Positions 637 through 23,645 of a stretch of DNA of 24,000 nucleotides are shown here, in pieces. Position 1 is the first letter of the stretch. Each line of letters begins with the position of its first letter. Position numbers and translations under genes: made by a program. Source of the stretch: Zobellia uliginosa (GTDB lineage Bacteria > Bacteroidota > Bacteroidia > Flavobacteriales > Flavobacteriaceae); NCBI RefSeq assembly GCF_900156625.1, contig NZ_FTOB01000002.1, forward strand, positions 94,275-118,274, given 5' to 3'. Below the pieces are notes generated by a model. The model was not told where the DNA came from. It ran no database searches and was given only the letters and a program-made list of their open reading frames with translations.

Positions 637-1500
637 TTACCCTTGATCGCTATGGTTTTTGTTCAATTCCAGTTCCATTTCTACTTGTTCAAGATGGTTT
701 TCAAGTCCGATTTGATTAAAAAAAGTGTTTATGGCCTTTGACCCTTTATCTACATTGATTACTGAGAGTGTATTTCCGTACTTTTGGTTTAGTCTTAAAA
801 TTAAGGTGGAAGCTATTCCCTTTTTTCTGTGATCCTTGTTTACGGCAATTTGATGTATCCGTTGGCTAACTGGGTTAAAAATAAGATATCCGACGAACTG
901 ATTTTCTATAAAAGCACCTAAAGAAATGTTGGTATCTTTTAGGGCGGTGAGAACGTTCTTTGAGTTTTGCCAAGTAGGGGAAACCTCCCAAAAGGATTCC
1001 ATCAGCGGCCAGTTATAGTGCTGTAATGGCTTGATTTCGATATGCTCGGTCATTTTTGAAATTTCAACCCATCCCTTGTAGCAAGATAGTTCTCTTTTAA
1101 TTTTAAATCCGGATTTTTTATAGGAGGCGATTGCCGGAATATTCTTGGTAATCACTTCAAGTAGAAGAGTGTCTATTCCTTTTTCATCAAGAACGGGAAG
1201 AATGAAGCGATACATCTGCTTTGTTAGTCCCGATCCTCTTTTTTCCGGAATAACCCCGGTCCCTCCGTTGTACACTATTTTTTTGTGGTCAATGCTGTCG
1301 TATCCGTGTAAAATCAAGGCTATCAGTTTTCCATTGTCAAAGACCCCGACCGATAGGTCAAGGTCAATTTTATCCGCAAGCATTTTAGCGCTTAGTTGTT
1401 CTTCGGTTAGTTTAAAAGAAATGAAATAGTCGGAAAAAGCATGGTTAAAAGCTTGCAAAATGCTTTTTTTATCTACGCCTTCTAAAGTTTTTATTTCCAT
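637..1500 (-). CDS. GNAT-family N-acetyltransferase (two GNAT-like halves)
   Basis: 287-aa ORF. Each half carries an acetyl-CoA-binding motif of the R/Q-x-x-G-x-G/A type (EKRGSGLTKQM; HRKKGIASTLI). Confidence 0.8.
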   Translation of the reverse strand: MEIKTLEGVDKKSILQAFNHAFSDYFISFKLTEEQLSAKMLADKIDLDLSVGVFDNGKLIALILHGYDSIDHKKIVYNGGTGVIPEKRGSGLTKQMYRFILPVLDEKGIDTLLLEVITKNIPAIASYKKSGFKIKRELSCYKGWVEISKMTEHIEIKPLQHYNWPLMESFWEVSPTWQNSKNVLTALKDTNISLGAFIENQFVGYLIFNPVSQRIHQIAVNKDHRKKGIASTLILRLNQKYGNTLSVINVDKGSKAINTFFNQIGLENHLEQVEMELELNKNHSDQG

Positions 1501-1536
1501 TTTAGGGGTTCCTAATTGCAGTCTACTTATACCGTA

Positions 1537-2532
1537 TTATGCCCATTGTTCGTTTTTCTTTATAACCAGGTCAATTTCCATCAAGGCGCTTTTAAACCGT
1601 TGTTTCCACCCACCCTTTATTTCAACAAAATCGATTCTCTTTTCTTTTAATATTTTTCTATTTGACAAGTCCAATAAATTCCTGTTCAATTCGCTCAAAC
1701 GAGTTCCATCTTGTTGAAATTTTACGTCATTATTAAGGTAGAGATACAGGTCGGCTTTGTTTGAGTTATAAATTTGATTATCTACTTTCAGATCTTTGTT
1801 GAAAATGAAGTTTGCGTATGACATTGTTGTGTGGATATCGGTGTCAATTATAATCAGGGGACTTTCACCACATTTTTGTTGGTTGATTCGCTTTGCGTGT
1901 TCCGATGCCACTAGATGTAAGTCTTTAAATTCAAATGAATTGGAATTAGGAATAAGGTCTCTACCGGCTTCTTTTACCAGGCTGCACTTGTAATGCTTCG
2001 CAAGTTTTTCGGCGAGTGTGGTTTTTCCGGTGCTTTCAGTTCCAAGTATAACCACCTTAATGGCAAAGTAAGGTTTTACACTTGGGGGTAAAAATTTCCA
2101 GTTTGAAAATAGATCATTCCGAACAGCAGTAGCGGAAACAGGATAGCGTTGTTTGGGAATGTCAAAAGGAATATGCTTGATTTTCATAAATGAAGCAACA
2201 TAGTCGCCATATTCTTCCGATGTAATTACCAAATCATGGTCAGGGTATAGTTTCTTGAATATTTCTGACCATAAACTTGAAACTTCTCGGGAGGATTCCG
2301 ATGTATTGGGTAAATCGGCTTCACTATAACTGAAGGTGTTGACTTCAATGTTTTGTGTTGATTTAAAGGTCTCTTCAATCCAATTTTTTCTTGTTTCGGA
2401 AGGGATTTTTTCTCTGTCGCTGCAACAAACTAAAACGGATAGATGGTCGCACTTCGTCAAAGCAAAATTTATCATTGCTTCATGTCCTTTGTGAAAAGGC
2501 ATAAACTTCCCGAAAATAAATGCTTTAACCAT
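1537..2532 (-). CDS. nadR: NadR-type bifunctional NMN adenylyltransferase / ribosylnicotinamide kinase (no HTH domain)
   Basis: 331 aa. It has an N-terminal nucleotidyltransferase HxGH motif (GKFMPFHKGH) and a central Walker A (GTESTGKTT). It overlaps pnuC by 8 nt. Confidence 0.8.
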   Translation of the reverse strand: MVKAFIFGKFMPFHKGHEAMINFALTKCDHLSVLVCCSDREKIPSETRKNWIEETFKSTQNIEVNTFSYSEADLPNTSESSREVSSLWSEIFKKLYPDHDLVITSEEYGDYVASFMKIKHIPFDIPKQRYPVSATAVRNDLFSNWKFLPPSVKPYFAIKVVILGTESTGKTTLAEKLAKHYKCSLVKEAGRDLIPNSNSFEFKDLHLVASEHAKRINQQKCGESPLIIIDTDIHTTMSYANFIFNKDLKVDNQIYNSNKADLYLYLNNDVKFQQDGTRLSELNRNLLDLSNRKILKEKRIDFVEIKGGWKQRFKSALMEIDLVIKKNEQWA

Positions 2533-3154
2533 TACTTAATTGTCTTTTCCAATTAAACAATCCGAACGTTGCAAGGCACAAGAAAACAAAGTATTCCAAG
2601 CTTAAAAAGACAATTCCTTTTTTGAAAAATAGGAATACACAAACCAAATCGACAACAATCCATAAATACCAAGTCTCTATTTTCTTTTTGGCCAGCAAAA
2701 CGGTAGCAATAATACTTAACACCATTACAAAGGAATCGGCAAACGGATAAGAGGCTTCGAATATGAAATAGAGCGGTAAATACAAATGAATTTTACTAAA
2801 CAAGTAGCCTGCGATAAGAGTTGAAAGAACAATAATGAGAGATAACCACAATTTTGATTTTGGGTCAATTGAGGTAATGCTATTTTCTTCGGATTTATTT
2901 TTCCAATTGTACCAACCATACAAGGTGACTGCGAAAAAATACACTTGTAAAAACATATCGGCATACAGCTGTACTTGAAAGAACAAAATGAACAAAAACA
3001 GTTCGTTTACAATTCCAGTGCTCCAAGTAAGAATGTTGGCTCTTGTGGCCAAGTAGACGGAAATCAAACCAAATAGCGTGGCTATCAACTCAACATAGCT
3101 TATTGGGTAGTTCAATACCTCAAAAGCAATGTTTTCAATGTCGAATAAATTCAT
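2525..3154 (-). CDS. pnuC: Nicotinamide riboside transporter PnuC
   Basis: 209 aa with multiple TM helices and the PnuC-typical duplicated Trp motifs (LYGWYNW, FGLFNW). Its start overlaps the stop of the upstream receptor gene at 3154. Confidence 0.8.
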   Translation of the reverse strand: MNLFDIENIAFEVLNYPISYVELIATLFGLISVYLATRANILTWSTGIVNELFLFILFFQVQLYADMFLQVYFFAVTLYGWYNWKNKSEENSITSIDPKSKLWLSLIIVLSTLIAGYLFSKIHLYLPLYFIFEASYPFADSFVMVLSIIATVLLAKKKIETWYLWIVVDLVCVFLFFKKGIVFLSLEYFVFLCLATFGLFNWKRQLSNG

Positions 3155-5151
3155 TAGAAATTGTATTGAATTGAAGTATAAAAATTGATCGGGGCCTGCA
3201 CAAAATATTTTTTGCTTCCATCAAAATCAACATAACCTTGGTTGAAATATTTTGTATCGGTAATGTTGTTTAGAAATATGGCGAATTGAAATTTATCGAT
3301 ATCATAGCTCGCCCTGCTATTCATAAGAAAGTAGCCGTCTACCATTTCTTCATTGGCAAAATCAATAAATGAACTATGCTGATATTTTGCGGATAAGGCT
3401 AAGGTGAGATTGTTTTTATTAAACACGACTTCTTGATTAACGATCAGTGGTGGTGTTAGTATTGGGTTGAATTTTTCCGACTGTTCCTTTATCCGACTAT
3501 AATTGAAGGAAGAATTATTTCTTAACGAAAAATAGTGATTTACTTTATAGAAAAGGGCCAGTTCCAATCCTGTTCGTACACTTTGCTCAACATTACTGGT
3601 CAAGGATAATCCGTTAGGTCCAAATTTGCCGTCTAAGACAATTTCATTTTCGAAATCCATATGGTAAAAATTGAAGTCCAGATTTAGTCTCTTTTTTTGA
3701 TACCTAAAGCCCAATTCGTGATTTACCACATATTCTGGTTTAGTGTTGGATAAAACGGGATTACCTGAATTATCGGCCAATAGATCATCGTTACCACCGA
3801 ACATATCGTTTCTTGTAGGCTCTCTTCCTGTTCTTCCAATGCTGTAATATAGGCTTGAATGTGGATTTAACGAAGTACTGAACCCTGCTTTTGGGTTGAT
3901 AAAATCCCAATCCAATTTCTGGAAAGCAACGGAACCTTTGTAATCAAAATTGACATAGCGATATTGGATGTCGGCAAAAAATGTTAGCCATTTGTAGCCG
4001 TAATTTGCTTTTGTAAAAGCGCTTACTTCATTTTTTAAACCTTTATTTTGATAGAGTTGGCCTAATTCTTTCTCGCTTCCGGTGTGTTTTCTATTGTATA
4101 GGTTTCCGTGAAAGCCGGTAGTCCAACTAAAATTATTTTTTGAATAACTGTAATTGCTAAAAAGACCGATAAGGTTTGATTGAAAAGCGTAATTGTACAA
4201 TTCTTCGGTAGGCGGAAAGCCTAAAAAATTATTCAGGTCAAAATCGTAGTTTCCTTTTAAAAAAGTATGGTATATACTTGATTGTAGAAAAGAAGAAGGG
4301 CTGATCTGCCAAGAGTTTTGAATTTGGGCAAGACTTTGAAAGAACCTATCTTTTTCTTGACTTGAATTGGCATTTGTTCTTCTGTCAATATGGATCAAGG
4401 AATCCGATACGCCAAGCCAAGCCATTTCATTCTTTTGTTGCCCCGCCAGTAAGTTTATTTTCCAGGTTGATTTATCAAAGAACAAGCCGCTACTTACAAA
4501 AACCGATTGGGAGTTGTTGGCTGAATGGTACTTGTAACCATCGGAATAAACTTGTGACGCCCTAAGGTATATTGCTTTTCTGTTTTTAATTCCGCTGTTG
4601 TACTCTCCAAACGCCCTGAGGCTATTAAACGAACCATAACCCAGGCCAAAAGTTGTTCGTGTTGAATCCCTAAGGTTTGGTGAAAAGAGTTGAATGCTTC
4701 CTCCGTAACTGGCCACACCGTTTTTTGTCAATCCAAGTCCCCTTTGGATTTGAATTTTGCTTACTGAATTTAGTAGATCGGGAAAATTTGAAAAATATCC
4801 CCCTTGGTCTTCGGGTTCATTAAGAGGTACACCATCAAGTGTCATATTTATTCTGGTTTGGTCAATACCCCTAAGTCGGAAATAGGAATAACCTTGCGAA
4901 TTTCCTGCATCGGAATAGTTGGTGATAGAAGGCGTTTCAGAAAGTAAAAATGAAGGCTCTTGGCCCACTGATTTTGACTTTATTTCTTTTGAATGGATAT
5001 TTTGAAAAGTAATTGGCGTCAACTTGTCGGCTTGGTAAGTTATAATTACTTCTTTAAGTTGTCTGATGGTATCGAGCTGTGTAGCCTCTTGTGCTATAAG
5101 TCGATTGCCGATTAGTACCGTTAGGAGAACTAGGGTAAAATGTTTGTTCAT
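3154..5151 (-). CDS. TonB-dependent outer-membrane receptor
   Basis: 665 aa with a signal peptide (MNKHFTLVLLTVLIGNRLIAQE) and a plug-like N-terminus. The long beta-barrel-type sequence is rich in alternating aromatic/Gly/Asn and ends in an aromatic residue (TSIQYNF). Confidence 0.85.
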   Translation of the reverse strand: MNKHFTLVLLTVLIGNRLIAQEATQLDTIRQLKEVIITYQADKLTPITFQNIHSKEIKSKSVGQEPSFLLSETPSITNYSDAGNSQGYSYFRLRGIDQTRINMTLDGVPLNEPEDQGGYFSNFPDLLNSVSKIQIQRGLGLTKNGVASYGGSIQLFSPNLRDSTRTTFGLGYGSFNSLRAFGEYNSGIKNRKAIYLRASQVYSDGYKYHSANNSQSVFVSSGLFFDKSTWKINLLAGQQKNEMAWLGVSDSLIHIDRRTNANSSQEKDRFFQSLAQIQNSWQISPSSFLQSSIYHTFLKGNYDFDLNNFLGFPPTEELYNYAFQSNLIGLFSNYSYSKNNFSWTTGFHGNLYNRKHTGSEKELGQLYQNKGLKNEVSAFTKANYGYKWLTFFADIQYRYVNFDYKGSVAFQKLDWDFINPKAGFSTSLNPHSSLYYSIGRTGREPTRNDMFGGNDDLLADNSGNPVLSNTKPEYVVNHELGFRYQKKRLNLDFNFYHMDFENEIVLDGKFGPNGLSLTSNVEQSVRTGLELALFYKVNHYFSLRNNSSFNYSRIKEQSEKFNPILTPPLIVNQEVVFNKNNLTLALSAKYQHSSFIDFANEEMVDGYFLMNSRASYDIDKFQFAIFLNNITDTKYFNQGYVDFDGSKKYFVQAPINFYTSIQYNF

Positions 5152-16477: not shown

Positions 16478-16489
16478 TCTTATATTACT

Positions 16490-16662
16490 GCCAACGGCCC
16501 GGGACTAGGCCCTGCGGATGCGCAGCATACGCGTTAAGGGTCTGGGCTGGGCATCCGTGGGGCTTATCCCTTGTTGTGTTTCGTTTTCCTTCGGGAGGTC
16601 TCTACGGTTTTCTGAGGTCGCTCCCTATATTTTTGCGCCGCCCTTCCCGGGCCGTTGTGGCG
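16490..16662. repeat. Uninterrupted GC-rich attC-like palindrome (unit E), 12 nt upstream of the AraC ATG
   Basis: A perfect 13-bp inverted repeat CAACGGCCCGGGA (16493-16505) / TCCCGGGCCGTTG (16645-16657) has outer boxes GCCAACGG and GTTGTGGCG. Pairing extends further (GCGG..CGCA / TGCG CCGC). Inner hairpins are GGATGC/GCATCC and a CC-UUCG-GG motif. Confidence 0.6.
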
Positions 16663-16753
16663 TATTGAGCGCACCGGGAATCGAAAAAAGGTATGGGTAC
16701 GGAGCGTTGCCCGTCTTGCTTTTTTCGATGTAGGGACGCGGCCGAAGGCAATT

Positions 16754-17489
16754 CGCCACAACGAGGTTGTGTATGGTTAGTTGCTTTGCGACTAAAGATA
16801 GCAAAAGGGGACGAATCTGAGGGAAATTCGGAGAATTTTCAGATTAGAGATTATCAAACTCTGGCAATTAATTATACACGGTGTGTGCCCAGTATGGGCA
16901 TCCTTTACGCTACAGAAATGTAGTTGATTAATCTAGAGGGGGCAAGTCCCTTATGGGCAGGGGTAACGCCTTGAACCATTAGTAAGTCGCAAGGGTGGTA
17001 ACTGCGAAGTTACATCTGAAGAAAGCGCGACTACAAAACTCGGTACCGACGAACAGGAACCGTATACGGAGGCATATTCATCCGGGCAAGCAAGCACATC
17101 ATTGTAACGCCCCAAGAGAACCAAAAGGATGATTATGTAGATACGGCGGTTATCGAGCGAAAGAAGATGTTCTTACCTGGGGAGATCTCTATAACCACGA
17201 GTTGGTATAGTAGAGAAGTCAGCAGAGGTCATAGTACTTACGGGCAACGAGCTAGGGCAATACCCTAGAGGTCTCACAAGTAAGGAAGGACCGAACGTAA
17301 TTCTCTTCAAAATTCGCATAGGAGCACGTGTTGTAGCCTATGTCTAAATTAGAAGATAGTGCCAAGGGTGGAAAGAGCCTTGGTTTGATGATTTACGAAC
17401 CGCCTGTTACGAGACCCGTATGGCAGGTGGTGTGAGAGGCGCAGTCCGTTCCTAACTAGGGGCGGACCCGTCTACTCGATTGTGGTGCG
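16754..17489. repeat. attC-like palindrome unit A, split by the group II intron (16883-17480)
   Basis: The left arm GTGTATGGTTAGTTGC (16769-16784) pairs with GCAATTAATTATACAC (16864-16879) as 13 Watson-Crick plus 3 G.T pairs. The outer box CGCCACAACG (16754-16763) pairs with GGT|TGTGGTGCG across the intron. The unit ends 3 nt from the stop of the 219-aa ORF. Confidence 0.6.
16883..17480 (+). mobile_element. ORF-less group II intron (class C-like), antisense to the flanking genes
   Basis: The 5' end GUGUGCCCAGUAUGGGCA fits GUGYG plus the domain I stem. The string GAAGUCAGCAGAGGUCAUAGUA is typical of bacterial introns. A domain V-like 33-nt hairpin lies at 17399-17431 (ACCGCCUG/CAGGUGGU, CGC triad, 3'-side bulge). 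Domain VI (17433-17478) has a bulged A at 17474, 7 nt from the AU 3' end. No + strand ORF of 60 aa or more lies inside. The 5' boundary is uncertain by 2 nt (16881 or 16883). Confidence 0.75.
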
Positions 17490-17492
17490 TTT

Positions 17493-18152
17493 TTATTCCG
17501 TCAACTTCATTTCCTCCATTTTTTCCGGTTCTTTAGGAGGCGGTGGTGGTTCAAAATAGGGTGTATAATCTGTGAGCCATATCCTTATGTCTGAATTTAG
17601 AAAGTTCCGTTCGTAAGCTCTACTTAATTCTAAAAAAATTGGTTGGAGCTTATTTAAGCCATCATTTGAGACAGAAATCGAAAGAATATGTTTGGCAGGA
17701 CTTTCACTCCAATTTTCGTCTTTTCCATTATTGGATATATCTTTTTCCAAAACTGATCCTAATTTGGAAAGTTCAAACTTTTTGCAGATCCATGGATTAG
17801 TGAATCTTTTCTCAATACTATCATCATGCACGATCAGTACATTTTTCTGTTTGATAAGGATATCACCTATTTTGTCCCAACAAGGCGTTGATACTTTGTG
17901 GATATATGTAGTATCATTGACCCTCATTATGACAACTGGGACGCTATCATTGCAAACTATCTCGTCAACATGTTTTAAAAGATTACGATAATCGTCGAAT
18001 TCAGAAAATTCTAAAGCAACCATATTATCTTCAATATTAGACACAACATTTTCTGTCAAATCAATGTTTTTATCCTGTTGCCTTTCGTTTTTGCAGCCAG
18101 AAACGACAATAAGCAATATGGTGATTAAGCATTTATTCAATAGTCTTTCCAT
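17493..18152 (-). CDS. Hypothetical lipoprotein
   Basis: 219 aa with a signal peptide and lipobox (LLIVVSGC|KNE) and a Pro-rich C-terminus (EPPPPPKEPEK). I recognise no family. Confidence 0.7.
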   Translation of the reverse strand: MERLLNKCLITILLIVVSGCKNERQQDKNIDLTENVVSNIEDNMVALEFSEFDDYRNLLKHVDEIVCNDSVPVVIMRVNDTTYIHKVSTPCWDKIGDILIKQKNVLIVHDDSIEKRFTNPWICKKFELSKLGSVLEKDISNNGKDENWSESPAKHILSISVSNDGLNKLQPIFLELSRAYERNFLNSDIRIWLTDYTPYFEPPPPPKEPEKMEEMKLTE

Positions 18153-18200: not shown

Positions 18201-18969
18201 AATGCACCACAACGCTAAATATATGGCAAGTTGGGCGGAAAACAAGTAATTATTTTTGGTTTAGCCACAAGCCAAATCTTTTGTATTTTGTTTTAATTTT
18301 TCTCTTTTAATACCAAATCAAAATATTTGGCGACTTTGCAAATAGACAACAACCTTTCGATTAAACACTAATCGCCAATTTGCTATATATAGTGTGCCTG
18401 TTGCACAAGTTAACGAAAAAACCACATAGGATCAAGGCGATCTTAACGTTGCGTTGTTAATTTTAGGTATGCAGGGAAAAAAGGATTACCAAGAAAAACG
18501 GTTCGCCCATTTCCAGTTGAGCGAGCGAATCCCCGAGAACAATTTCTACAGGCGGTTAAAGGAGGTTTTGGAACTCCGGTTCTTTTACGGCCTTACCGAA
18601 GGCTACTACGGGAACAGCGGCCAAAAGAGCATAGACCCGGTGGTCTTCTTCAAGCTCTGCCTTGTGGGCTACCTGGAGAACATCATCAGCGACCGCAAGC
18701 TTACAAGGTGATGCACCTCTCGGCCATAGCCTATAATCTTAAAAAGTACCTGAAATTCACGGAAAAACGTGCCAAAAGCGGGGCGGGACGGCTTGATTTG
18801 GCAGTCTTGGCAAAAAGTGCGCTTCAATACTTGTTTGGGACTTGCATAAAACATCGAAATTTGGTGCCTCGATTCTGGCCCGACATAAAAAGAGCCCCGT
18901 AAAGAGGCTTATATGAATCCGTTTTTTTGCTTTTCAATGGCTTGTGCAACGATTACTTGTGTTAGCATT
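18201..18969. repeat. attC-like palindrome unit B, split by MITE copy 1 (18393-18956)
   Basis: The left part AATGCACCACAACGCTAAATATATGGCAAGTTGGGCGG (18201-18238) pairs with ATCGCCAATTTGCTATATATAG (18371-18392) plus TTGTGTTAGCATT (18957-18969). The reverse complement of the right part reads AATGCTAACACAACTATATATAGCAAATTGGCGAT. An inner inverted repeat is GCCAAATCTTTTG/CAAAATATTTGGC. Confidence 0.6.
18393..18956 (+). mobile_element. Internally deleted, non-autonomous (MITE-like) IS1182-family derivative, copy 1
   Basis: This 564-bp copy is collinear with both ends of the full IS at 21923-23645. About 1159 bp are missing between GACCGCAAGCT and ACAAGGTGATGCAC. Only transposase fragments remain (85-aa N-terminal and 64-aa C-terminal ORFs). 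Confidence 0.85.
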
Positions 18970-18974
18970 AGTTT

Positions 18975-19535
18975 TTATTCGGGCAATTTATCATATATCG
19001 TAATGTCTACAGGAATTTTTATTTTTTTATTTACTTTTCCAGGCATTTCAAAGTCAATTAAAATATGTCCTTTAAGTTTTTCATATTCTTTGTCAAGTTT
19101 TATTTTAATCCCTAAGTTTTGACATAAAACATTATCATAATCCCATAAAGAGTATTCCTGTAAATTAACAGCTATTTCATTATCTACTATTTGGAGTTTC
19201 TCATTTTTCTCATTTATCAATTCGTAATCTTTAAAGGTACATGTAGTAAAATCCCAAATATCATCGTCTTTGTTGATTATAGTTCCATTGTTTTCATTAA
19301 ACTCTTCCAGTTTCGTTTTGGATATAGGATATCTAGTATAAAGATGTACTAAACTTGTTGGTTGCTTTTTCCTTTCAGTAAAGGCTCCAATAGAAATTGT
19401 TGCTTTTGCTCCAATTTCGTCTAAAAACTGTTCACTCTCGTTTTTAGAATATTTGTAATCGGATTTATCTTGACTATTACAACTGGTCAGAAATACAGTT
19501 AGTGTTATGAAAAAAAGTTTTCTAAAATATTTCAT
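18975..19535 (-). CDS. Hypothetical lipoprotein
   Basis: 186 aa with a signal peptide and lipobox (TLTVFLTSC|NSQ). I recognise no family. Confidence 0.7.
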   Translation of the reverse strand: MKYFRKLFFITLTVFLTSCNSQDKSDYKYSKNESEQFLDEIGAKATISIGAFTERKKQPTSLVHLYTRYPISKTKLEEFNENNGTIINKDDDIWDFTTCTFKDYELINEKNEKLQIVDNEIAVNLQEYSLWDYDNVLCQNLGIKIKLDKEYEKLKGHILIDFEMPGKVNKKIKIPVDITIYDKLPE

Positions 19536-19556: not shown

Positions 19557-20278
19557 AATGCTAACGGTTTGTATAAGATTAGTTGCGTCGTTTAAGCAAC
19601 TAATTTAGCAAATACAAACCGAACCTGCCAGCCGGCAGGCTGGTAGAAAATCCGCAAGGATTTTCGTAAGTAGGCTAGAACTAGCAATAAATTATATACG
19701 GTGTGCCTGTTGCACAAGTTAACGAAAAAACCACATAGGATCAAGGCGATCTTAACGTTGCGTTGTTAATTTTAGGTATGCAGGGAAAAAAGGATTACCA
19801 AGAAAAACGGTTCGCCCATTTCCAATTGGGCGAGCGAATCCCCGAGAACAATTTCTACAGGCGGTTAAAGGAGGTTTTGGAACTCCGGTTCCTTTATGGC
19901 CTTAGCGAAGGCTATTACGGGAACAGCGGCCAAAAGAGCATAGACCCGGTGGTCTTCTTCAAGCTCTGTCTTGTGGGCTATCTGGAGAACATCGTCAGCG
20001 ACCGCAAGCTTACAAGGTGATGCACCTCTCGGCGATTGCCTATAACCTGAAGAAGTGCCTGAAATTCACGGAAAAACGTGTCAAAAGCGGGGCGGGACGG
20101 CTTGATTTGGCAGTCTTGGTAAAAAGTGCGCTTCAATACTTGTTCGGGACTTGCATAAAACATCTAAATTTGGTGCCTCGATTCTGCCCCGACATAAAAA
20201 AAGCCCCGTAAAGAGGCTTATATGAATCCGTTTTTTTGCTTTTCAATGGCTTGTGCAAGGATTACTAGTGTTACCTGC
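19557..20278. repeat. attC-like palindrome unit C, split by MITE copy 2 (19702-20265)
   Basis: The left arm GTATAAGATTAGTTGC (19571-19586) pairs with GCAATAAATTATATAC (19684-19699) as 12 Watson-Crick, 2 G.T and 2 A.A pairs. The outer boxes are AATGCTAACGG and TAGTGTTACCTG. The interior holds a perfect local palindrome (19566-19620), CCTGCC-agcc-GGCAGG, and GAAAATCC-gcaa-GGATTTTC (19646-19665). The unit is homologous to unit A over most of its length. Confidence 0.6.
19702..20265 (+). mobile_element. Internally deleted, non-autonomous (MITE-like) IS1182-family derivative, copy 2
   Basis: It has the same 564-bp length and the same deletion junction (GACCGCAAGCTTACAAGGTGATGCAC) as copy 1. Scattered substitutions separate it from copy 1 and from the full IS. 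Confidence 0.85.
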
Positions 20279-21679: not shown

Positions 21680-21922
21680 GTTTACTGGTGGTTTTTTGAG
21701 CTTGCAGATAACGGTTGAGCTAAGCGTAGTGCGGAGGTACGACATCTGCGACAGCAGTGGGCGAGTTGGCGCGCTGGCCAGTTTCCGTCTTAACACGAAG
21801 CTAAAGCTTTTGGTTTTGCTTTTTCTTTTTTTGTCCAAAGCTAAATCCCAAAGATTTAGCGCCATTATAAATATACACAGACCTTTCAATTTTGCCCTAA
21901 AGTCCGCATTACGTTTAGGCAT

Positions 21923-23645
21923 TGTGCCTGTTGCACAAGTTAACGAAAAAACCACATAGGATCAAGGCGATCTTAACGTTGCGTTGTTAATTTTAGGTAT
22001 GCAGGGAAAAAAGCATTACCAAGAAAAACTGTTCGCCCATTTCCAGTTGAGCGAGCGAATCCCCGAGAACAATTTCTACAGGCGGTTAAAGGAGGTTTTG
22101 GAACTCCGGTTCCTTTACGGCCTTACCGAAGGCTATTACGGGAACAGCGGCCAAAAGAGCATAGACCCGGTGGTCTTCTTCAAGCTCTGCCTTGTGGGCT
22201 ATCTGGAGAACATCATCAGCGACCGCAAGCTCATGGCCCATTGTTCCCTACGGTTGGACATCCTTTATTTCATAGGGTACGATATAGACGAGGAGCTCCC
22301 CTGGCACAGTACGATAAGCCGTACCCGCCAACTGTTCCCGGAAAGTGTATTCGAGGAAGTCTTCACCACGGTTTTACGTATGTGCGTGGAGAAGGGAATG
22401 GTAAGCGGCCATACCCAGGCCATAGATTCCGCACCGGTCAAGGCCAACGCGAGCATGGACACCTTGGAACTTAAGGTGCCCGAAGGGGAACTGGACGAAC
22501 ACCTGCGCAAGGTACGGGTGCTGAGTGCAATGGACAAAGGGGAGCCACACCGTAAATCGCAGAACGACAGGTCGGACAAGGGCCAGCGCAGCGTTACGGC
22601 CAACCCCAACGAACTGGCGGCGATAAAGGGCCGGAACAAAAAATGGGCGAAGGACCAGGACCAACGCCCGGGCGCCAAGAACAAGGGGGCCAAGTATACG
22701 AGTAACAAAACACATTACAGCCCCACGGACCCCGATGCGAGGATCAGCGTAAAACCGGGCAAGGCCCGAAAGCTGAACTACCTGAGCCAATTGAGCGTTG
22801 ATACGGCCCACCACGTCATTACGGACATCAGGGCCTACCATGCGGACGGGAAGGACAACCAACAGTTGCCGGATATCGTCCAAAGACTTCGGGCAAGGTT
22901 GTGGAAGCAGGGCCTGGTCTGGGAGAACTGTGTAGCGGACACGGGTTACAGTAGCGGGGAGAACTATGCCTTTCTAGAGGATATCGGTCTAAAGAGCTTC
23001 ATTCCGCCCCATGGCACCTACAAGGGCGGTCCGGACGGATTCACCTATAACAATACAGAAGACCATTACGTATGTCCGCAGGGCAAGGTGATACCCTTCA
23101 CCAAGGTGTTCAACGATCACCGTACGGGTACGAAAAAGAAAGCGTACCGCGCATCGAGCCTGATCTGTAAGGGCTGCCCGTTGAAATCCACATGTCTGGG
23201 CAAGGTGAACGAAAAACAATTTTCGGTCACCTATTACCGTGCGGAGTACGAGCGGAACATCAAAAGGGTGAACAGTAAATTGGGGCGCTATATGAAGGGC
23301 AAGCGACAGAGTACGGTAGAGCCCGTATTCGGAACGCTGACCCAGTTCATGGGGCTCAGGAAGATAAACACCATAGGATTGGCACAGGCCAACAAGGTGA
23401 TGCACCTCTCGGCGATTGCCTATAACCTGAAGAAGTACCTGAAATTCACGGAAAAACGCTCAAAAAGCGGGGCGGGACGGCTTGATTTGGCAGTCTTGGC
23501 AAAAAGTGCGCTTCAATACTTGTTCGGGACTTGCATAAAGCATCGAAATTTGGTGCCTCGATTCTGGCCCGACATAAAAAAAGCCCCGTAAAGAGGCTTA
23601 TATAAATCCGTTTTTTTGCTTTTCAATGGCTTGTGCAACGATTAC
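21923..23645 (+). mobile_element. IS1182-family insertion sequence, full length (1723 bp)
   Basis: The boundaries are defined by where the three copies stop being alike (TGTGCCTGTTGCACAAG... ...CTTGTGCAACGATTAC). A subterminal inverted 10-mer GTTGCACAAG lies 7 nt and 6 nt from the ends. It has a single long transposase ORF. I could not identify a target-site duplication. Confidence 0.9.
21999..23591 (+). CDS. IS1182-family DDE transposase
   Basis: 530 aa from the ATG at 21999; the track uses the TTG at 21984. The N-terminal InsH/DUF772-type region is IPENNFYRRLKEVLELRF...GQKSIDPVVFFKLCLVGYLENIISDRKL...PWHSTISRTRQLF. The C-terminal region is STVEPVFGTLTQFMGLRKINTIGLAQANKVMHLSAIAYNLKKYLKF, as in IS1182/IS5-related transposases. 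Confidence 0.9.
   Translation: MQGKKHYQEKLFAHFQLSERIPENNFYRRLKEVLELRFLYGLTEGYYGNSGQKSIDPVVFFKLCLVGYLENIISDRKLMAHCSLRLDILYFIGYDIDEELPWHSTISRTRQLFPESVFEEVFTTVLRMCVEKGMVSGHTQAIDSAPVKANASMDTLELKVPEGELDEHLRKVRVLSAMDKGEPHRKSQNDRSDKGQRSVTANPNELAAIKGRNKKWAKDQDQRPGAKNKGAKYTSNKTHYSPTDPDARISVKPGKARKLNYLSQLSVDTAHHVITDIRAYHADGKDNQQLPDIVQRLRARLWKQGLVWENCVADTGYSSGENYAFLEDIGLKSFIPPHGTYKGGPDGFTYNNTEDHYVCPQGKVIPFTKVFNDHRTGTKKKAYRASSLICKGCPLKSTCLGKVNEKQFSVTYYRAEYERNIKRVNSKLGRYMKGKRQSTVEPVFGTLTQFMGLRKINTIGLAQANKVMHLSAIAYNLKKYLKFTEKRSKSGAGRLDLAVLAKSALQYLFGTCIKHRNLVPRFWPDIKKAP

Follow-up and report, generated by a model that had tools for sequence, protein, structure and literature searches.

A probably non-autonomous group IIC intron without an open reading frame in an attC-like hairpin of Zobellia uliginosa

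In the flavobacterium Zobellia uliginosa, a stretch of 24,000 nucleotides (assembly GCF_900156625.1, contig NZ_FTOB01000002.1, positions 94,275 to 118,274; hereafter the window) holds a 598-nt element, at positions 16883-17480, between an imperfect hairpin and a small gene on the opposite strand. An annotation made from the letters of the window alone, to which we refer as the sequence-only reading, had proposed that this element is a class C group II intron without an open reading frame (ORF). This raises the question of whether an intron that encodes no reverse transcriptase (RT) is a mobile element or a relic. We found that all six domains of a group II ribozyme are present and conserved, and that the element occupies the insertion geometry published for group IIC-attC introns. 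We consider it very probable that it belongs to the attC-targeting group IIC introns and is a non-autonomous, ORF-less member of them.

A scan of the window at the Rfam gathering thresholds returned a single match, to RF02001 (group-II-D1D4-3) at 16998-17172, which covered all 170 model positions at 128.7 bits (gathering score 32, E = 1.3e-26). A sensitive Rfam scan added RF01998 at 17191-17291 (43.5 bits versus a gathering score of 35, E = 2.5e-6). The domain III hairpin carries a 32-nt insertion relative to this model, and the RT-encoding relative L111, a locus on a viral contig, scores identically. The 5' 115 nt of the intron are 80-84% identical to L111, to a further viral-contig locus (L096) and to copies in genomes. 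Domains V and VI form the minimum free energy (MFE) fold of the last 86 nt (z = -5.0, with none of 200 shuffles as good), in which domain V has helices of 9 and 4 bp, separated by a 2-nt bulge (U17421, G17422) and capped by a 5-nt loop. Both the 33-nt domain V hairpin with its CGC triad and the bulged A of domain VI, seven nt from an AU end, had been picked out in the sequence-only reading; the MFE fold reproduces both, with A17474 as the bulged base. The inner stem of domain VI also covaries across the ORF-less family described below (RNAalifold, columns 197-221), and the element as a whole folds with z = -4.9.

Searching 17399-17480 with group II covariance models, a check proposed along with the initial annotation, gave a divided outcome. 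RF00029 had no match there, even at E <= 10. We then used a custom model, R1, built from domains V and VI of 18 RT-encoding relatives with the window copy excluded. R1 had one match in the window, at 17396-17480, which was full length, scored 83.4 bits (E = 1e-18), confirmed domain V and ended at the proposed 3' splice site. We do not count the silence of RF00029 against domains V and VI, because this model is itself marginal on L111, which encodes a 426-aa RT/maturase (41 bits versus a threshold of 40), because R1 reaches 83.4 bits, and because the motif spanning these domains also occurs in RT-encoding introns. That motif, GAACCGCC-N20-24-GGUGGUGUGAGAGG (domain V, the junction between domains V and VI, and the base of domain VI), was found in more than 120 viral-contig loci, of which the two inspected, L111 and L096, are introns with RT ORFs.

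Over its full length the element aligns with 22 further ORF-less copies, and 26 full-length copies align with it in their ribozyme parts. Its termini, GUGUG at 16883 and AU at 17479-17480, follow the group II GUGYG/AY rule and recur in 51 aligned copies. An ORF scan found no ORF of at least 60 aa in the interior, and tblastn found no RT-like sequence anywhere in the window. Thus the proposal of an ORF-less group II intron at 16883-17480 stands, with matches to RF02001, RF01998 and the domain V-VI model, and so do its boundaries, as the R1 match stops exactly at 17480. Its orientation was also read correctly: the intron lies on the + strand and the neighbouring ORFs on the - strand, with 12 nt from the intron to the stop codon that ends the ORF at 17493-18152.

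Assignment to class C, likewise suggested from the letters alone, is supported by the CGC triad, by relatives of 80-84% identity whose RT/maturase lacks an endonuclease domain, and by 44 insertion sites (see below). Domain sizes are similar to those of the crystallised class C intron O.i.I1 of Oceanobacillus iheyensis, with which the window intron presumably shares long near-identical stretches (5' GUGUGCCC..AUGGG, AUCUGAAGGAAG, GAAGUCAGCAGA.GUCAUAGUAC and the domain V base ACCGCC..GGUGGUGUGAGAGG). O.i.I1 naturally encodes an intron-encoded protein (IEP) and inserts after terminators in sense orientation; its ORF-less structural form was engineered. A CGC rather than an AGC triad in domain V marks class C (PMC7923331), and the window copy has this hallmark as C17401-G17402-C17403.

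We next consider the relatives that do encode a protein. In L096 and L111 the ribozyme is 81-84% identical to the window copy and domain IV contains an ORF of 420 or 426 aa. The IEPs of the closest relatives are 420-433 aa long, combine RVT_1 with GIIM and match TIGR04416, and they lack an endonuclease domain. A genome collection was scanned with a 25-mer (AAGCAAGCACATCATTGTAACGCCC) from the hairpin of domain I that carries exon-binding site 1 (EBS1). It matched 102 stretches, all in Bacteroidota, with hosts including Maribacter, Polaribacter, Tenacibaculum, Flavivirga, Kaistella, Pelobium, Prolixibacteraceae and Salinivirgaceae. From the 5' end to domain V the copies form two size classes, full-length ones of ~1845-1860 nt (a few near 1970 nt) and ORF-less ones of 592-598 nt. 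When the IEPs of the relatives were compared with plasmids, the best matches were to Bacteroidota (60-68%), followed by Firmicutes introns (~40%), and there was no close proteobacterial protein among the top plasmid matches. The IMG/VR viral contig of L111 carries two full-length intron copies 2.3 kb apart (1228-3082, and 1-784 on the - strand) among phage-like genes, and phages may be a vehicle for this intron lineage.

Where the intron inserts is the second part of the argument. Its exons, once joined, fold into CGCCACAAC, an internal loop, a 17-bp L-stem, a G and GT/TGTGGTG (the slash marks the insertion point; DNA z = -5.3, 0 of 200 shuffles as good). The insertion thus lies inside the 3' GT/T of an imperfect hairpin, 130 nt long, whose base is formed by AAC...GTT. 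This refines the sequence-only reading, which had placed the intron immediately after the stem: it does adjoin the hairpin, but it starts 3 nt past the L-stem, within the outer AAC/GTT stem. At the 44 unique sites of insertion that were compared, position -3 is T in 43, and -2 G, -1 T and +1 T are invariant. TATAYAC is conserved upstream, and the conserved exon positions near the junction are limited to -3 to +1. Positions -16 to -5 are paired in a hairpin at 37 of the 44 sites, and hairpin spans cluster at ~45, 110 and 175 nt. In DNA MFE folds of the reconstituted sites, 21 of 44 cases show in-register pairing of GT/T with an AAC upstream, at discrete spacings. A test of 9-mer R-box complementarity gave values no better than shuffles, and MFE-based tests were used instead.

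Published IIC-attC introns insert into the bottom strand of attC at the R'' box, at TTGT/T, opposite to cassette transcription (PMC3001079, PMC7923331, PMC8876359). The family consensus T-G-T/T equals this site, and the window site has the published group IIC-attC geometry. The link to attC targeting drawn in the sequence-only reading is supported by the antisense orientation, the GT/T box and the presence of a hairpin at most of the 44 sites. Close described counterparts are S.ma.I2 of Serratia marcescens and its relatives, studied by Quiroga, Centron, Leon and Roy. Like S.ma.I2, the window intron has a class C ribozyme with a CGC triad and splits an ORF from its hairpin, as S.ma.I2 lies between aadB and its attC (PMC3001079). 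Shared with group IIC-attC introns in general are the bottom strand of an attC-type hairpin, the R'' TTGT/T, the antisense position relative to cassettes and, in the relatives of the window intron, an IEP without an endonuclease domain. Unlike them, the window intron has no ORF, its host belongs to the Bacteroidota rather than the Proteobacteria, and the hairpins of its family are longer, with conserved L-arms (..GCAATWAATTATAYAC..). The attC targeting may stem from descent within the IIC-attC clade, or it could be convergent.

Target recognition appears to follow the class C rule of a stem-loop plus short pairings between exon- and intron-binding sites (3-4 bp for IBS1-EBS1, plus IBS3-EBS3), as the family sites have a short IBS1 and show no obvious IBS2. 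By homology and pairing, EBS1 is predicted to be ACA(UC) in the loop at 17094-17101. At 43 of 44 sites the 5' exon ends in UGU, with which ACA pairs, and in L111 the pairing is between ACAUC and GGUGU; the invariance of this loop in the genome scan is by construction, as the 25-mer probe includes it. The initial annotation had placed EBS1 elsewhere, at ACCGU (17059-17063), which is a helix strand in the RF02001 alignment, and this assignment is abandoned. An internal loop at 17113-17126 was also considered for EBS1; it fitted L111 but neither L096 nor the window, and was dropped. The coordinates are collected in Table 1.

Table 1. Features of the intron and its surroundings. Coordinates are those of the window unless a locus (L and a number) is named.
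Feature	Coordinates	Strand	Details and basis
5' exon, attC-like imperfect hairpin	16754-16882	+	R box CGCCACAAC 16754-16762; L-stem 16768-16785/16863-16879; then G-GT
Complete ORF-less group IIC intron, 598 nt	16883-17480	+	5' GUGUG ... 3' CUCGAU
Domain I (3' limit approximate)	16883-17186	+	core 16998-17172 = RF02001
Terminal loop GCACAUCA with predicted EBS1	17094-17101	+	ACA 17096-17098, extendable to ACAUC; RF02001 consensus structure
Domains II and III with linker (J2/3) AGAAGUCAGCAGAGG	17191-17291	+	RF01998
Domain IV without ORF	17296-17397	+	basal stem 17296-17300/17393-17397; D4a 17316-17343; D4b 17360-17385; RNAalifold
Invariant D4b loop GGUGGAAAGAGC	17367-17378	+	family signature GGUGNAAAGAGC
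Domain V, 33 nt	17399-17431	+	CGC triad 17401-17403; MFE fold and custom model
Domain VI	17433-17478	+	bulged branch-point A17474, seven nt from 3' end
3' exon TGTGGTGCG	17481-17489	+	rest of GT/TGTGG box; pairs with CCACAAC 16756-16762; antisense ORF stop at 17493
Cassette-like ORF, 219 aa	17493-18152	-	no Pfam match; parted from its hairpin by the intron
Tyrosine recombinases beside intron-bearing ORF arrays	L195 1841-2968; L127 3118-4260; L138 3361-4515		~100-aa N-terminal extension each

The window copy belongs to a family. Roughly 100 tiles sampled via the 25-mer yielded ~39 copies without an ORF, which are 592-598 nt long and distributed over at least 20 genomes of Bacteroidota. In 22 of 23 complete ORF-less copies, domain IV consists of a basal stem and two hairpins, D4a and D4b. 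Full-length introns have D4a too, upstream of the start codon. Of the 23 ORF-less copies, 22 carry the D4b loop GGUGNAAAGAGC, which none of the 26 full-length copies has; counted over all fetched loci this loop occurs 39 times, followed by domain V within 70 nt in all but one case (38 of 39). The stem that carries this loop covaries (GCCAAGG/CCUUGGU, UUUCAAG/CUUGAAG, AUGGUC/GACCGU, UUAGUU/AACUAA). Over 13 distinct ORF-less copies, RNAalifold found compensatory two-sided changes in 27 of 61 pairs, including all three domain IV helices. The sequence-only reading had described domain IV as reduced to two short hairpins. These are real (the first spans 17317-17342, one nt more than had been given, and the second 17362-17383), but they are not a mere remnant, as they form a conserved and covarying family module.

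Identical ORF-less copies at different sites indicate that the family moves. A metagenome-assembled genome of a member of the Flavobacteriaceae (OY969790.1) has seven ORF-less copies that are 94-100% identical, five of them at 99.7-100%, and all their flanks differ. Four copies in two strains of Tenacibaculum finnmarkense are 99.8-100% identical, again with different flanks. ORF-less and full-length copies occur together in at least four genomes (OY969790.1, CBDFHN010000001.1, Maribacter sp. 4G9 and Polaribacter filamentus), while the ORF-less copy in Pelobium (L150) is adjoined only by a partial IEP-like match. This pattern fits a family of non-autonomous retroelements that would be mobilised in trans. 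Since identical ORF-less copies are found at many sites, trans-mobilisation is favoured over a relic at the level of the family. The sequence-only reading had left the choice between these two fates; it can now largely be made at family level.

In domains I to III, ORF-less copies share 90-94% of their sequence with the resident full-length intron and are equally close to ORF-less copies elsewhere. In L128, L163, L217 (OY969790.1) and L179/L220, domains I to III resemble those of the full-length intron of the same genome, and domain IV is the cross-genus module. This suggests a mosaic of domains I to III and domain IV, which may have arisen by recombination or template switching between ORF-less and full-length forms. 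A different derivative is found in L160 (reverse complement of 2766-3343), where 578 nt remain after an exact ATG-to-TGA deletion that took out the ORF between its start codon and its final codons (..CTATGATTTGGTGA..), and where the D4b module is missing. As this exact deletion differs from the other ORF-less copies, ORF loss occurred more than once.

ORF-less introns are regarded as rare in bacteria (PMC4424553), with increases in certain genomes (PMC8919778). We found no description of such an ORF-less family in the literature consulted. The nearest parallel is TeI3 of Thermosynechococcus elongatus, which arose by one ORF deletion and is mobilised by 'driver' IEPs (Mohr et al. 2010, PMC2882425). 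Both sets are ORF-less derivatives with one domain IV architecture that share genomes with relatives containing the ORF; in the case of TeI3, the IEPs of these relatives act in trans to mobilise them. In contrast to the window family, TeI3 is of the CL/IIB1 type, is confined to one cyanobacterial genome and retains N- and C-terminal ORF remnants. The window family is of class C, targets hairpins, is spread over at least 20 genomes in several orders and, where TeI3 keeps ORF remnants, carries the structured D4b hairpin, whose loop is invariant.

In the mechanism that we propose, the intron RNA would be transcribed from the + strand, fold, and be spliced with an RT/maturase supplied by a full-length relative elsewhere in the genome. 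This IEP would presumably bind through the retained D4a hairpin, and perhaps also through D4b. The ribonucleoprotein (RNP) would then enter other attC-like hairpins by reverse splicing into their bottom strand in single-stranded form, recognising the stem-loop together with the 3-bp EBS1-IBS1 pairing (ACA-UGU) and EBS3-IBS3 (A-U). Because the IEP has no endonuclease domain, reverse transcription would be primed by a nascent DNA strand at the replication fork.

A broader proposal, which we regard as tentative and give slightly less than even weight, is that the ORF-less copies represent an undescribed, phylum-wide miniature group II lineage. It would have a single class C origin, in which the RT gene was replaced by the D4b module with its GGUGNAAAGAGC loop. 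It would parasitise the resident RT/maturase, swap domains I to III with resident introns and spread via the cassette arrays of Bacteroidota. The exchange of domains I to III enters this proposal because these domains are 90-94% like the resident full-length copy, whereas domain IV is family-specific.

Several observations weigh against a mobile, attC-targeting intron in the window. Neither an RT/maturase gene nor an integrase lies within the 24 kb. The nearest known relative, L205 of Maribacter halichondriae, is only ~84% identical, and no second copy of the window sublineage was found; a metagenome scan with the window domain V variant gave four loci that share domain V alone. The window is also the single exception among the 44 sites in having G as its -3 exon base, which leaves only two EBS1-IBS1 pairs. 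This G may be the native base of the hairpin, a T-to-G point change or the loss of one GT in a (TG)n run, causes that are indistinguishable. A terminator-like hairpin (16693-16714, +) lies ~170 nt upstream of the intron on the same strand, and no promoter was identified for the intron. To these are added the silence of RF00029 on 17399-17480 and the scores of the recombinases near relatives, which reach 192-219 against a TIGR02249 cut-off of 265 and match in two pieces.

An alternative, which we consider unlikely yet the most serious of those weighed, is that the window copy is an immobile, decaying relic, left in a genome or at a site where splicing and movement have ceased, and kept as precise loss is rare. 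In its favour are the unique -3 G with its two remaining pairs, the absence of a helper RT from the window, a divergence of ~16% from every known relative with no sister copies found, the upstream terminator-like hairpin, and an RF00029 model that is silent here versus 41 bits on L111. The copy also has seven private departures from D1-D3 columns that are at least 93% conserved, more than most copies. However, none of these is obviously disruptive, and they either agree with the consensus of RF02001 or make pairing better. The six domains are all intact, and the catalytic parts are free of indels. In domain V, three adjacent pairs differ from the family consensus and all are compensated (GUA/UAC to UGU/GCA), and the stems of domains VI and IV are kept, a sign that selection acted on structure during most of the divergence. 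The 3' end, the branch-point A and the 5'-end and J2/3 sequences with their gamma and epsilon contacts are unchanged. The -3 G may be native to this hairpin, and the GT/T of the R box is intact. Judging by its sequence, the window ribozyme looks structurally intact, and its continued activity is uncertain.

Less probable again is that the hairpins are other palindromes, such as terminators or REP-like (repetitive extragenic palindromic) elements, and that the intron is an ordinary terminator-targeting IIC intron. The hairpins are putative attC sites, identified by their geometry. attC sites are usually shorter than hairpins of about 110-175 nt, there is no integrase in the window, and the R-box complementarity of 9-mers did not exceed that of shuffles. 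The nearest relatives of the IEPs outside Bacteroidota are the Firmicutes introns (~40%), whose class C status is deduced from hosts and length. As for the recombinases, tblastn with an approximate IntI1 query, used as a lead only, located, in L195, L127 and L138, tyrosine recombinases of 375-384 aa whose distance from an intron copy is 0.6-2.5 kb, and these were re-scored with NCBIfam and Pfam. They fall below the integron-integrase cut-off, but those of L195 and L127, which adjoin the arrays, reach that of NF040815 ('tyrosine recombinase/integron integrase'), and the one in L195 is co-oriented with the ORFs. The antisense orientation, moreover, is that of IIC-attC introns and unlike that of terminator-type IIC introns (PMC3001079), and insertion at GT/T agrees with the TTGT/T consensus (PMC7923331). 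AAC-GTT pairing at discrete spacings in 21 of 44 MFE folds, small and co-oriented ORFs with no relation to one another and in many cases no known function, and an insertion sequence (IS) with deletion derivatives that targets the same hairpins also speak against ordinary palindromes.

This IS, at 21924-23645, encodes a DDE_Tnp_1_6/DUF772 transposase (535 aa, 21984-23591). Two internally deleted copies of ~562 nt, similar to miniature inverted-repeat transposable elements (18394-18955 and 19703-20265), are 97% alike. All three sit in attC-like hairpins as the intron does, a few nt 5' of GT/T, with right flanks TTGTGTTAGCA, TAGTGTTACC and CTTTGTTGGCA. It looks like an attC-targeting IS with non-autonomous derivatives, in parallel to the intron pair.

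Other parts of the window may also belong to the array. A G+C-rich (54-58%) non-coding block at 16489-16762, in a region of ~36% G+C, contains the nested palindromes CAACGGCCCGGGA/TCCCGGGCCGTTG and CGTTGTGGCG/CGCCACAACG as well as the terminator-like hairpin at 16693-16714, and had no Rfam match; it may represent another attC together with a cassette lacking an ORF. Similar in composition is a second G+C-rich stretch (21690-21800) between the start of an antisense ORF (~21680) and the IS, within a would-be hairpin region of ~220 nt. The antisense ORFs of 219 aa and 186 aa share GTTTTTATTC.G.CAA.TT at their 3' ends (17489-17507 and 18971-18989), encoding ..KL(T/P)E-stop. The two ORFs may be cassettes that are paralogous, or they may have a hairpin-proximal motif in common.

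Co-option by the host or the integron, with the intron acting as an outward promoter or insulator for the next cassette or as a cassette-formation intermediate that joins a gene to attC, is highly improbable: the position between an ORF and the remainder of its hairpin is that of S.ma.I2, which gives its downstream cassette a Pout promoter (PMC3001079, PMC8876359), a cassette-formation model has been published (PMC7923331) and the conserved D4b loop has no assigned ribozyme role, but a search with the sigma-70 consensus, which does not cover Bacteroidota promoters, found no promoter-like site on the - strand within the intron, identical and dispersed multi-copy insertions are the signature of a selfish element and not of a regulatory part that has become fixed, and the whole ribozyme is conserved instead of an outward-facing segment.

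A non-autonomous group IIC intron that targets attC-like hairpins has several consequences. Surveys based on RT ORFs will miss ORF-less introns, and those based on RF00029 likely miss copies like the one in the window. Targeting of attC-type sites by class C introns is extended to Bacteroidota, where the family marks cassette arrays that also draw an IS and its derivatives. At less than 600 nt, the element is a natural substrate for studying trans-mobilisation and hairpin recognition by IIC RNPs. If the miniature lineage is real, it would be the first family of non-autonomous group II introns to be widespread in bacteria, and would offer a natural system for defining the minimal RNA signal that recruits an IEP in trans.

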